Assembly (NCBI RefSeq): GCF_054482595.1
Contig: NZ_CM137008.1
Reading direction: 5' to 3' (one strand)
DNA length: 64,000 bases
A model generated the notes under the pieces. It worked only from the letters and a program-made list of their open reading frames with translations, did not search any database and had not been told where the DNA came from. Made by a program: the position numbers and the translations under genes. Below are positions 21,622 through 28,167 of the stretch, in pieces (position 1 is the stretch's first letter; every line of letters begins with the position of its first letter).

Positions 21622-22740
21622 ATGACTGGAGATAACACCCTCATCCATTCTCACGGCATTAACCGTCGTGATTTCATGAAGCTTTGTGCAGCATTAGCCG
21701 CCACCATGGGGTTAAGTAGCAAAGCCGCTGCAGAGATGGCCGAATCGGTTACTAACCCGCAGCGTCCGCCAGTTATCTGGATTGGCGCGCAGGAGTGCAC
21801 CGGTTGTACGGAATCTCTGCTTCGTGCAACGCATCCAACGGTAGAAAACCTCGTGCTGGAGACTATCTCTCTGGAGTATCACGAAGTGCTTTCCGCCGCC
21901 TTCGGTCATCAGGTCGAAGAGAACAAACATAACGCACTTGAGAAGTACAAAGGGCAGTATGTGTTGGTTGTGGATGGTTCCATCCCATTAAAAGATAACG
22001 GTATTTATTGCATGGTTGCTGGTGAGCCGATTGTGGATCACATCCGCAAAGCGGCAGAAGGCGCAGCAGCGATTATCGCTATCGGTTCCTGCTCTGCGTG
22101 GGGCGGTGTTGCCGCAGCTGGAGTTAACCCAACTGGCGCAGTCAGCCTGCAAGAAGTTCTGCCAGGCAAAACCGTTATCAATATTCCGGGCTGCCCGCCG
22201 AACCCGCACAACTTCCTCGCGACCGTTGCGCACATCATCACTTACGGCAAACCGCCGAAACTGGATGACAAAAATCGTCCGACCTTCGCCTATGGCCGTC
22301 TGATTCACGAACACTGCGAACGTCGCCCGCACTTCGATGCTGGTCGTTTTGCCAAAGAGTTCGGTGATGAAGGCCACCGTGAAGGCTGGTGCCTGTACCA
22401 CCTCGGCTGTAAAGGGCCAGAAACTTACGGCAACTGCTCAACGCTGCAATTCTGCGATGTTGGCGGCGTGTGGCCGGTAGCGATTGGTCACCCATGCTAT
22501 GGCTGTAACGAAGAAGGTATCGGCTTCCATAAAGGCATCCATCAGCTTGCCAACGTCGAAAATCAGACTCCGCGTTCACAGAAACCGGATGTTAACGCTA
22601 AAGAGGGCGGCAACGTCTCTGCAGGCGCTATTGGTTTGCTCGGCGGTGTGGTTGGGCTGGTTGCCGGTGTCAGCGTGATGGCGGTGCGTGAACTGGGTCG
22701 TCAGCAAAAGAAAGATAACGCTGACTCACGGGGAGAATAA
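21622..22740 (+). CDS. hybO: Hydrogenase 2 small subunit (Tat signal)
   Basis: 372 aa; Tat motif RRDFMK; [NiFe]-hydrogenase small-subunit Cys clusters. Confidence 0.95.
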
Positions 22741-22742
22741 CC

Positions 22743-23729
22743 GTGAACAGACGTAATTTTATTAAAGCAGCCTCCTGCGGGGCATTGCTGACGGGCGCGC
22801 TGCCGTCTGTCAGTCATGCGGCTGCTGAAAACCGCCCGCCAATTCCGGGATCGCTGGGGATGTTGTACGACTCGACCTTGTGCGTAGGCTGCCAGGCTTG
22901 CGTCACCAAGTGTCAGGATATCAACTTCCCTGAACGTAACCCGCAAGGGGAACAGACCTGGTCGAACAACGACAAACTGTCGCCGTATACCAATAACATC
23001 ATTCAGGTGTGGACCAGCGGCACAGGGGTCAACAAAGACCAGGAGGAGAACGGCTACGCGTACATTAAGAAACAGTGTATGCACTGCGTCGATCCGAACT
23101 GTGTCTCTGTGTGCCCGGTCTCTGCGCTGAAAAAAGATCCGAAAACCGGCATTGTCCATTACGACAAAGATGTGTGCACCGGTTGCCGTTACTGCATGGT
23201 CGCCTGCCCATACAACGTGCCGAAGTACGACTACAACAACCCGTTTGGTGCGCTGCATAAGTGCGAGTTGTGCAACCAGAAAGGTGTGGAACGTCTCGAT
23301 AAAGGCGGTTTGCCTGGCTGCGTAGAAGTGTGCCCGGCGGGCGCGGTAATTTTTGGTACGCGTGAAGAGCTGATGGCGGAGGCGAAAAAACGTCTGGCGC
23401 TGAAGCCTGGCAGCGAATACCACTATCCGCGTCAGACGCTGAAATCTGGCGACACTTACCTGCATACGGTGCCGAAATATTATCCGCATCTGTACGGCGA
23501 GAAAGAGGGCGGCGGTACTCAGGTTCTGGTACTGACGGGTGTGCCTTATGAAAATCTCGACCTGCCGAAACTGGACGATCTTTCTACCGGTGCGCGTTCC
23601 GAAAATATTCAACACACCCTGTATAAAGGCATGATGCTACCACTGGCTGTGCTGGCGGGCTTAACCGTGCTGGTTCGTCGCAACACCAAAAACGACCATC
23701 ACGACGGAGGAGACGATCATGAGTCATGA
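22743..23729 (+). CDS. hybA: Hydrogenase 2 4Fe-4S ferredoxin-type subunit (GTG start, Tat signal)
   Basis: 328 aa; [10 protein letters not shown] Tat motif; four CxxCxxCxxxCP ferredoxin motifs. Confidence 0.93.
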
Positions 23730-24897
23730 TCCACAACCGCTGGGCGGCAAAATCATCAGTAAACCGGTCATGATTTTTGGACCGTTAATCGTCATCTGTA
23801 TGCTCCTGATTGTGAAGCGTCTGGTGTTCGGTCTGGGCTCTGTCTCTGACCTGAACGGCGGCTTCCCGTGGGGCGTGTGGATCGCGTTTGACCTGCTGAT
23901 TGGTACCGGCTTTGCCTGTGGCGGCTGGGCGCTGGCGTGGGCGGTATACGTCTTTAACCGTGGGCAATACCATCCGCTGGTGCGTCCGGCGCTGTTGGCG
24001 AGTCTGTTTGGTTACTCACTGGGGGGCTTGTCGATCACTATCGACGTGGGTCGCTACTGGAACCTGCCGTACTTCTACATTCCGGGTCACTTCAACGTGA
24101 ACTCGGTACTGTTCGAGACGGCGGTCTGTATGACCATCTATATCGGCGTGATGGCACTGGAGTTTGCTCCGGCACTGTTTGAACGTCTGGGCTGGAAGGT
24201 TTCTCTCAAGCGTCTGAACAAGGTGATGTTCTTCATCATTGCACTTGGCGCGCTGTTGCCGACCATGCACCAGTCTTCAATGGGGTCACTGATGATCTCG
24301 GCGGGCTACAAGGTGCATCCGTTGTGGCAGAGCTATGAAATGTTGCCGCTGTTCTCGCTGCTGACGGCGTTCATCATGGGCTTCTCGATTGTCATCTTTG
24401 AAGGTTCGCTGGTGCAGGCGGGTCTGCGTGGCAACGGTCCGGATGAAAAGAGTCTGTTCGTCAAGCTGACCAACACCATCAGTGTGTTGCTGGCGATTTT
24501 CATCGTGCTGCGCTTTGGCGAGCTTATCTATCGCGACAAGCTGTCGTTAGCGTTTGCCGGTGACTTCTACTCCGTGATGTTCTGGATTGAAGTCCTGCTG
24601 ATGCTCTTCCCGCTGGTGGTTCTGCGTGTGGCGAAGCTGCGTAATGATTCCCGCATGCTGTTCCTGTCAGCACTGAGCGCACTGTTAGGTTGTGCAACCT
24701 GGCGTCTGACCTATTCGCTGGTGGCATTCAACCCGGGCGGCGGTTACGCCTACTTCCCGACCTGGGAAGAACTGTTGATTTCTATTGGTTTTGTGGCTAT
24801 TGAGATTTGCGCTTACATCGTACTCATTCGTCTACTGCCGATACTTCCTCCTTTAAAACAAAACGATCATAATCGTCATGAGGCGAGCAAAGCATGA
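23719..24897 (+). CDS. hybB: Hydrogenase 2 integral membrane (cytochrome-b-like/NrfD-type) subunit
   Basis: 392 aa polytopic membrane protein; overlaps hybA stop by 11 nt. Confidence 0.93.
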
Positions 24898-27091: not shown

Positions 27092-27572
27092 AGAGATAGC
27101 AGGTTTCCAGACCTCCCCGAAGGCGCAAGTACAGGCAGCTTTTGAAGAAATTGCCCGGCGTTCGATGCACGATCTCTCTTTTCTGCATCCTTCAATGCCG
27201 GTGTATGTTTCTGACTTTACGCTGTTCGAAGGTCAGTGGACGGGGTGTGTGATCACCCCGTGGATGCTGAGTGCAGTTATCTTCCCCGGCCCGGATCAAC
27301 TCTGGCCGCTGCGCAAAGTGAGTGAAAAAATCGGTCTGCAACTGCCGTATGGCACTATGACCTTTACCGTTGGCGAACTGGACGGTGTTTCTCAATATCT
27401 CTCCTGTTCGCTGATGTCGCCGCTTTCGCACAGCATGTCGATTGAAGAGGGCCAACGCCTGACGGATGACTGCGCACGAATGATCCTTTCGCTGCCAGTC
27501 ACGAATCCGGATGTACCACACGCAGGGCGTCGCGCCCTGCTGTTTGGTCGCAGGAGTAGCGAAAATGCATGA
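27084..27572 (+). CDS. hybE: Hydrogenase 2-specific chaperone; ORF track start at 27009 is over-extended
   Basis: Translation from MTEEIAGFQTSPKAQVQAAFEE; operon context. Confidence 0.88.
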   Translation: MTEEIAGFQTSPKAQVQAAFEEIARRSMHDLSFLHPSMPVYVSDFTLFEGQWTGCVITPWMLSAVIFPGPDQLWPLRKVSEKIGLQLPYGTMTFTVGELDGVSQYLSCSLMSPLSHSMSIEEGQRLTDDCARMILSLPVTNPDVPHAGRRALLFGRRSSENA

Positions 27573-27906
27573 GTTGTCTCTTTGCCAGAGCGCCGTTGAA
27601 ATTATCCAACGGCAGGCGGAGCAGCACGATGTTAAGCGCGTCACCGCCGTGTGGCTGGAAATTGGCGCGCTCTCCTGCGTTGAGGAGAGCGCCGTCCGTT
27701 TTAGTTTTGAAATTGTCTGCCACGGAACGGTGGCGCAAGGGTGCGATTTACATATCATCTATAAACCCGCCCAGGCCTGGTGCTGGGATTGCAGCCAGGT
27801 GGTGGAGATTCATCAGCACGATGCGCAGTGTCCGCTCTGTCATGGCGAGCGGTTGCGTGTCGATACCGGCGATTCGCTGATCGTCAAAAGTATTGAAGTT
27901 GAATAA
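27565..27906 (+). CDS. hybF: Hydrogenase nickel-incorporation protein (HypA paralog); ORF track start at 27511 is over-extended
   Basis: Translation from MHELSLCQSAVEIIQ; zinc-finger CxxC...CxxC motifs (CWDC, CPLC). Confidence 0.9.
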   Translation: MHELSLCQSAVEIIQRQAEQHDVKRVTAVWLEIGALSCVEESAVRFSFEIVCHGTVAQGCDLHIIYKPAQAWCWDCSQVVEIHQHDAQCPLCHGERLRVDTGDSLIVKSIEVE

Positions 27907-27918
27907 CCGGAGTTAACA

Positions 27919-28167
27919 ATGTGTATTGGCGTTCCAGGCCAGGTGCTGGCTGTCGGTGAAGATATTCACCAGCTTGCGCAGGTTGAAGTATGTGGTATCA
28001 AGCGCGACGTGAATATCGCCCTGATTTGTGAAGGTAACCCTGCCGATCTACTGGGCCAGTGGGTGCTGGTACACGTCGGATTTGCCATGAGCATCATCGA
28101 CGAAGATGAAGCCAAAGCCACATTAGACGCACTACGCCAAATGGATTACGACATTACCAGCGCGTGA
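27919..28167 (+). CDS. hybG: Hydrogenase maturation chaperone (HypC family)
   Basis: 82 aa; N-terminal MCIGVPGQV HypC signature. Confidence 0.93.

Follow-up and report, generated by a model that had tools for sequence, protein, structure and literature searches.

Hydrogenase-2 operon and its gene junctions

In Escherichia coli, 707 of 2987 unidirectional gene pairs (24%) are spaced between -8 and +6 nucleotides (nt; negative values are overlaps), and -4, -1 and -8 are the three commonest overlaps and enriched spacings (PMC10666635; PMC12548453). These three have been taken in a review as spacings of translational coupling, with the question of RNA unfolding versus 30S/70S reinitiation left unsettled (PMC12548453). 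The closest measured cases are the co-directional pairs hyfH-hyfI (hydrogenase 4), ydbH-ynbE and menD-menH, which overlap by 1 nt and carry the downstream Shine-Dalgarno (SD) sequence within the upstream gene; in native -1 pairs of this kind, hyfH-hyfI among them, downstream translation falls by 80–100% once the upstream stop is shifted 38 nt away (PMC10666635). The closest described operon to the locus considered here is hybOABCDEFG of E. coli K-12 (b2997-b2990), which encodes hydrogenase 2. The same eight-gene operon occupies positions 21622-28167, all on the + strand, of a 64,000-nt stretch of contig NZ_CM137008.1 (assembly GCF_054482595.1), the whole of which is called the window below. 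Its genes are joined mostly by short overlaps, and we consider an operon of short overlaps with translational coupling probably the best overall explanation of this layout.

Read directly from the sequence, the seven junction distances are +2, -11, -4, -1, -8, -8 and +12. The small-subunit gene hybO (21622-22740, 372 aa; PF01058 and PF14720) starts with an ATG that is directly preceded by an in-frame TAA stop. At its junction with hybA (22730-22745), an SD motif GGGGAG (22730-22735) precedes the hybO stop TAA (22738-22740), a gap of two bases (CC) and the GTG start of hybA (22743-22745), a gene for the 328-aa iron-sulfur (Fe-S) protein of hydrogenase 2 (22743-23729). The hybA/hybB junction (23706-23729) consists of the SD motif GGAGGAG (23706-23712) and the 11-nt overlap ATGAGTCATGA (23719-23729), which runs from the hybB ATG to the last base of the hybA stop. 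The 392-aa NrfD-type membrane subunit encoded by hybB (23719-24897) is followed by the 567-aa large subunit encoded by hybC (24894-26597), and at their junction (24880-24897) the SD motif GAGG (24880-24883) precedes a 4-nt ATGA overlap (24894-24897). The Pfam profile of the large subunit stops at residue 552 of HybC, leaving a 15-residue C-terminal extension beyond it.

The remaining genes specify maturation factors. At hybC/hybD (26586-26599), a weak SD motif AAGG (26586-26589) lies upstream of TAATG (26595-26599), in which the stop and the start share base 26597; hybD (26597-27091) encodes a 164-aa maturation endopeptidase. At hybD/hybE (27072-27091), the SD motif GGGAGG (27072-27077) is followed by the 8-nt overlap ATGACTGA (27084-27091), which opens with the ATG of hybE (27084-27572), the gene of a 162-aa hydrogenase-2 chaperone. 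At hybE/hybF (27552-27572), the SD motif AGGAG (27552-27556) is followed by the 8-nt overlap ATGCATGA (27565-27572), in which the hybE TGA stop falls inside the Met-His-Glu codons (ATG-CAT-GAx) that open hybF (27565-27906, ATG at 27565). The latter gene, named hypA by the Prokaryotic Genome Annotation Pipeline (PGAP), encodes a 113-aa nickel metallochaperone. The hybF/hybG junction (27907-27921) is a 12-nt gap containing the SD motif GGAG (27909-27912) ahead of the ATG at 27919 of hybG (27919-28167), which encodes an 82-aa HypC-family maturation factor. At each overlap, the downstream start codon and its SD motif sit within the final codons of the upstream gene, and every downstream start in the operon carries an SD motif, with duplex energies of -3.5 to -10.3 kcal/mol. 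The gene identities, all the overlaps and the GTG start of hybA had been described in an earlier note based on the sequence and are confirmed, the junctions base for base; its description of the overlaps as systematic holds for five of the seven junctions, the exceptions being the gaps at hybO/hybA and hybF/hybG.

The identity of the operon is secure. Positions 20000-30000 match the chromosomes of E. coli XH990 and several other strains at 100% identity, the whole window differs from XH990 at 2 positions, and the gene boundaries used here are those of the RefSeq annotation of that identical strain. Pfam searches place each of the eight proteins in the family or families expected (PF01058/PF14720, Fer4_11, NrfD, NiFeSe_Hases, HycI, NiFe-hyd_HybE, HypA and HupF_HypC). 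Of 5426 complete E. coli genomes, 5416 contain the region. Its DNA is 98.3% identical to the operon of K-12 MG1655, with the same chromosomal neighbors (yghW upstream, yghU and gss downstream). Comparison with the K-12 hyb coordinates, which the earlier note had proposed, shows that MG1655 agrees in the order and lengths of the genes, in their start codons and in the spacing of the junctions; the differences are strain-level substitutions only, such as Ser at HybE residue 159 where the K-12-derived structure 2KC5 has Gly. Huber et al. 2023 (PMC10666635) had already tabulated all seven of these distances for K-12 in their supplement file 3. The operon, its boundaries and its overlap distances are therefore already known from the reference annotation and from a published table of E. 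coli intergenic distances, and we agree with the earlier note that this is expected biology, an ordinary textbook operon architecture.

How unusual the density of overlaps appears depends on the comparison. Against all unidirectional E. coli pairs, the finding of five of seven hyb junctions within -8 to +6 nt has P = 0.010. The proper comparison set is formed by the sister hydrogenase operons rather than by all E. coli pairs, and against these (11 of 17 junctions overlapping, 65%) the hyb count is unremarkable (P = 0.53). In the rest of the window, overlaps occur in 5 of 30 same-strand pairs, each of 1 or 4 nt; compared with the closely spaced pairs in the window (5 of 16 overlapping), Fisher's exact test gave P = 0.17, in a sample too small for a statement on enrichment. 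Dense short overlaps like those of hyb are found in K-12 hyc (four of eight junctions: -4, -1, -4 and -8) and in K-12 hyp (three of four: -10, -1 and -4). In K-12 hya, four of five junctions overlap, all by 4 nt, which makes it nearly pure ATGA where hyb has a wider mix of lengths. Unlike all three, hyb includes a -11 and two -8 junctions. The compactness of hyb is therefore normal for a hydrogenase operon.

Junction spacing across Enterobacterales and beyond

A HybD search of genome contigs yielded 80 species loci, onto which all eight proteins were then mapped. Fifty-seven belong to Enterobacterales, with HybD identities of 99–60% and with denominators that vary between junctions; they include Escherichia, Citrobacter, Salmonella, Pseudocitrobacter, Intestinirhabdus, Trabulsiella, Kosakonia, Morganella, Leminorella, Budvicia, Limnobaculum and Edwardsiella. 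The other 23 loci lie outside the order, in Motiliproteus, Betaproteobacteria and Magnetospirillum. Four loci with aberrant distances were removed by a start-offset filter: L039, L043, L051 (Citrobacter amalonaticus AUH_CA_2023_1) and L052 (Enterobacter sp. EA-1), whose displaced starts are consistent with frameshifts or assembly errors.

Within Enterobacterales, hybA starts with GTG in all 50 loci and follows hybO at +2 in 46 of them. Overlap of hybA with hybB is universal (49/49), by 11 nt in 41 loci, 17 nt in five and 8 nt in three. Three junctions show a single distance throughout: -4 at hybB/hybC (48/48), -1 at hybC/hybD (49/49) and -8 at hybE/hybF (53/53), the last with ATGCATGA present in every locus. 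The hybD/hybE overlap is retained in 47 of 57 loci (-8 in 38, -11 in nine), the exceptions being a spacing of +1 or +2 in Budviciaceae and Leminorella and of +31 in Edwardsiella. The hybF/hybG junction is always a gap, the length of which varies between genera. In Leminorella, Budvicia and Limnobaculum, 1.16–1.40 kb separate hybF from hybG, as against 5–30 nt, implying an inserted gene; the Morganella loci have no adjacent hybG match.

The junction sequences themselves are nearly invariant, each overlapping stop being made from the first codons of the downstream gene. The C-terminal tail of HybD varies (PREATHD, PREAAHV, PKETAHV, SREVCYE and others) while retaining an (R/K)E dipeptide, the codons of which form the GGAG of the hybE SD motif.

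Outside Enterobacterales, overlaps were found at none of 21 hybC/hybD junctions, none of 16 hybD/hybE junctions and 3 of 21 hybB/hybC junctions, and hybA starts with ATG in all 19 loci. These hyb-type operons of Betaproteobacteria, Motiliproteus and Magnetospirillum encode homologous small, Fe-S, membrane and large subunits and a homologous protease in the order shared with hyb. Their genes are mostly separated by gaps (10–172 nt at hybC/hybD and 228–373 nt at hybD/hybE), and extra genes part hybE, hybF and hybG. The fixed junction pattern and hybA GTG start of Enterobacterales have no counterpart in these more distant operons.

Probable translational coupling and competing explanations

Four of the five hyb overlaps have spacings in the enriched coupling class, namely -4 at hybB/hybC, -1 at hybC/hybD and -8 at hybD/hybE and hybE/hybF. 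The hybC/hybD junction has the same TAATG-type layout as hyfH-hyfI, ydbH-ynbE and menD-menH. Coupling was measured in those pairs, whereas for hyb it is predicted from the sequence, and the -8 and -11 junctions put the start upstream of the stop, a geometry different from that covered by the experiments. By analogy with the measured pairs, translational coupling in the hyb operon is plausible. The eight genes are most likely read from one polycistronic mRNA, on which ribosomes ending one cistron would promote initiation on the next. Possible routes are termination-reinitiation at the -4, -1 and -8 junctions, a start region kept unfolded by the translating ribosomes, or both, with ordinary SD-driven initiation adding on top. 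In this way, a low-abundance anaerobic transcript would yield the structural subunits and their dedicated maturation factors in linked amounts. The overlaps leave no room for internal promoter or terminator signals, and a consensus scan of the operon found no excess of either (3 promoter-like sites against 5.9 expected; 13 terminator-like sites against 8.2 ± 3.1). One element scored as terminator-like in that scan is a G+C-rich hairpin of 8 pairs, GCAGGGCGTCGCGCCCTGC, at 27522-27540 (+), within the 3'-terminal part of hybE, where it coincides in part with the RRALLF codons; it lies 12 nt upstream of the hybF SD motif and leaves that motif uncovered.

Several observations weigh against coupling, and many of them favor an alternative in which the overlaps are by-products of genome compaction, arising as stops were lost or starts recruited and then frozen by dual coding, with initiation driven independently by the SD motifs and coupling playing a minor part. 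Each downstream gene has its own SD motif at the energies given above. A folding analysis that looked for occluded start regions at the eight starts of the operon found no strong RNA sequestration: the start regions of hybO, hybC, hybD, hybE and hybG are unusually accessible (4th–13th percentile of opening energy within the operon), and those of hybA, hybB and hybF are average (48th–65th percentile), a result compatible with coupling as well as with its absence. De novo initiation could thus suffice, at least at the open hybC, hybD, hybE and hybG starts. The -11 spacing of hybA/hybB lies outside the three enriched coupling spacings. Homologous operons with gaps function outside Enterobacterales, as do those with a gapped hybD/hybE junction in Budviciaceae and Edwardsiella. 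The conservation of the overlap nucleotides is partly forced because they code twice, ATG-CAT-GAx for instance specifying the essential Met-His-Glu, so that overlap sequences are constrained by conserved N termini and conservation by itself is no proof of selection for coupling. Nor did a literature search for translational coupling in hyb find an experiment on this operon, and the supplements of INRI-seq (PMC9825163) and TRAINSPOTTER (PMC13245402) contain no hyb start data.

Against compaction as the whole explanation, three junctions keep one exact spacing in genera whose HybD identity falls to about 60%, and the hybD/hybE overlap persists in 47 of 57 loci despite the varying HybD tail. In the overlapping E. 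coli pairs that have been tested, downstream translation is strongly affected by where the upstream stop lies, also in the presence of an SD motif (PMC10666635). In addition, the weak hybD SD motif (median duplex energy of -3.9 kcal/mol across loci) is paired with the perfectly conserved -1 junction. On balance, we regard compaction with only minor coupling as unlikely, if not negligibly so, and retain short overlaps with coupling as the preferred explanation. The earlier note had spoken of tight translational coupling: the enriched -4, -1 and -8 spacings and the conserved overlaps make coupling plausible, but the separate SD motifs and the open starts keep independent initiation a serious alternative, and the -11 junction is not an enriched coupling spacing. 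If reinitiation contributes, it most likely does so at hybC/hybD, where a weak SD motif coincides with an invariant -1 spacing.

A stronger version of coupling can be formulated, in which an order-specific and selectively maintained spacing code (+2/GTG, -11, -4, -1, -8, -8) would determine the ratios in which hydrogenase-2 subunits and their private maturation factors are made. Synthesis of the HybD protease would be throttled by the -1 junction with its weak SD motif and that of HybA tuned by the invariant GTG, and the gapped relatives would regulate these ratios differently. We put this forward as a speculative and rather improbable reading.

Overlapping frames may also hide recoding, either as a frameshift fusion or as a further gene. 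Within ATGCATGA, a nested ATG at 27569 forms a perfect ATGA with the hybE stop, 12 nt from the SD motif, and opens an out-of-frame open reading frame (ORF) of 103 aa inside hybF (27569-27880, +). This frame reaches at least 100 codons in only 8 of 53 loci (median, 21), and in another E. coli it stops after 21 codons; we rejected it as a chance ORF on the strength of this poor conservation. For a frameshift, the heptamer T_TTA_AAA occurs in hybB at 24852-24858, where the -1 frame is the frame of hybC. A -1 shift at 24852 meets a TGA at 24879 before hybC begins, and none of the other junctions has a slippery heptamer. A hybB-hybC fusion was rejected on the basis of that TGA, which follows the sole slippery heptamer, and recoding in either form seems to us extremely improbable.

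Starts of hybE and hybF and the surroundings of the operon

A mechanical ORF list of the window extends two of the overlapped genes beyond their annotated starts, giving hybE as 27009-27572 (187 rather than 162 aa) and hybF as 27511-27906 (131 rather than 113 aa). Each longer frame is open and provided with a start codon in this strain. For hybE, the upstream in-frame candidates are TTG at 27009, TTG at 27021 and GTG at 27045, the last being an extra codon of this strain that other Escherichia loci do not have; the upstream in-frame ATG that the earlier note attributed to both genes exists only for hybF, at 27511 (18 codons upstream). The latter recurs in many Escherichia, Citrobacter and Salmonella loci.

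Comparison across species argues strongly against the longer forms. An upstream in-frame start codon is absent in 22 of 57 Enterobacterales loci for hybE and in 17 of 53 for hybF, in-frame stops having eliminated the upstream starts. Escherichia whittamii, a close relative, has an in-frame stop two codons upstream of hybE, and in Citrobacter youngae, C. portucalensis and C. werkmanii, the -18 ATG of hybF is cut off by a stop at -14. Both extensions are also contained in the coding region of the gene before. At the annotated hybE start, the SD duplex energy is -10.3 kcal/mol, compared with -3.2 or weaker at the upstream candidates, and its SD motif is stronger than that of any upstream candidate in 32 of 35 loci. 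For hybF, SD strength discriminates weakly (22 of 36 loci), and the start call therefore rests on in-frame stops and on the Met-His-Glu motif.

The nickel site of HypA is formed by the N-terminal amine, His2 and Glu3, so that Met-His-Glu must be the first three residues, and even one inserted residue perturbs it (PMC7055735). A longer HybF would bury this site. Consistent with the annotated start, positions 1-112 of the HypA Pfam profile align with HybF residues 1-112, and residue 1 of the HypA structures from Thermococcus kodakarensis and Helicobacter pylori aligns with the annotated HybF Met; the translation also has the CxxC zinc motifs CWDC and CPLC. The nuclear magnetic resonance structure of HybE (2KC5) is of a 162-aa protein starting with MTEEIAG, which shows the construct and not the native start. 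By these sequence criteria, hybE starts at 27084 and hybF at 27565 as annotated, these being the positions that are conserved, homologous and used; the longer ORFs are artifacts of choosing the first start codon after a stop, and we consider it very improbable that either is real. The earlier note had named use of the upstream starts as the finding that would speak against its reading, and in-frame stops, SD strength, the Met-His-Glu motif and the Pfam and PDB alignments all point the other way.

The same note ascribed the over-extension of hybE and hybF to the overlaps. Both genes are indeed over-extended, but three of the five overlapped genes are not, and non-overlapping neighbors are. The frames of hybB, hybC and hybD have in-frame stops 19, 5 and 12 codons upstream, respectively, with no start codon between, and it is this close stop that keeps them from being extended. 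Conversely, the non-overlapping genes yghX (20101 in the ORF list versus 20140), yghU (29204 versus 29156) and gss (29358 versus 29361) are over-extended by 13, 16 and 1 codons. The longest-ORF rule over-extends genes generically, wherever a frame is open and has an upstream start codon. The overlap adds to this by placing the coding region of another gene upstream, where there is then no stop-rich intergenic stretch.

The N terminus of HybG is likewise consistent with its annotation. Members of the HypC/HybG family have an N-terminal Met-Cys, in which Cys2 becomes the N terminus once Met is removed. HybG begins with MCIG at 27919, position 1 of the HupF_HypC profile aligns with its residue 1, and in the junction alignment the gene starts with ATG followed by TGT or TGC in every genus displayed.

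Two of the translations carry predicted twin-arginine translocation (Tat) signals, HybO with INRRDFMK and HybA with (V/M)NRRNFIK, in which the motif NRRNFIK occupies residues 2-8. A conserved twin-arginine-like motif was also seen in the C-terminal tail of HybE (RRALLF, residues 149-154, 27528-27545), at the end of the PF11939 profile. Every Enterobacterales genus has it as RRALL(F/L)G, and Gamma- and Betaproteobacterial homologs with only 24–32% identity have it as SRRxF(L/F); it resembles the Tat consensus S-R-R-x-F-L-K of HybO and HybA. No mention of this motif was found in the searchable literature. HybE is a Tat-signal-binding chaperone, and judging from its sequence the motif might act as an internal mimic of a signal peptide.

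Other features of the window lie outside the operon. Upstream of it, yghX (20140-21027, +) is an intact gene for a 295-aa hydrolase, where K-12 MG1655 has a pseudogene. The hybG-yghU intergenic region contains a repetitive extragenic palindromic (REP)-type element (Rfam naRNA4, 28183-28259, -), a second naRNA4 match being located at 17140-17210 (+). Some E. coli strains (e.g., NZ_CM185151.1) have a 1.28-kb IS621 inserted in the same intergenic region, just outside the operon, with all junctions intact. Between yghS and yghO, positions 34670-44482 hold a second LptF/LptG pair and genes for a serine palmitoyltransferase, an acyl carrier protein, an epimerase/dehydratase and a fatty acyl-AMP ligase; this cluster has the appearance of a lipid-synthesis island and has short overlaps of its own (-1, -4, -1 and -4). 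Small-RNA matches at the Rfam gathering level were obtained for C0719 (299 bits, 53485-53706, -) and ES173 (99 bits, 11296-11359, -).

Beyond the existing annotation, the increments are two: Enterobacterales have a fixed spacing pattern and a fixed hybA GTG start, neither of which extends beyond the order, and the annotated hybE and hybF starts are the conserved ones. For annotation, this means that a longest-ORF track is not trustworthy for hybE and hybF, and that a cross-species stop-codon test settles such cases cheaply. The comparative gain is incremental: operons with invariant and with gapped spacing may provide a natural test set for how junction spacing affects the ratios of subunits to chaperones.

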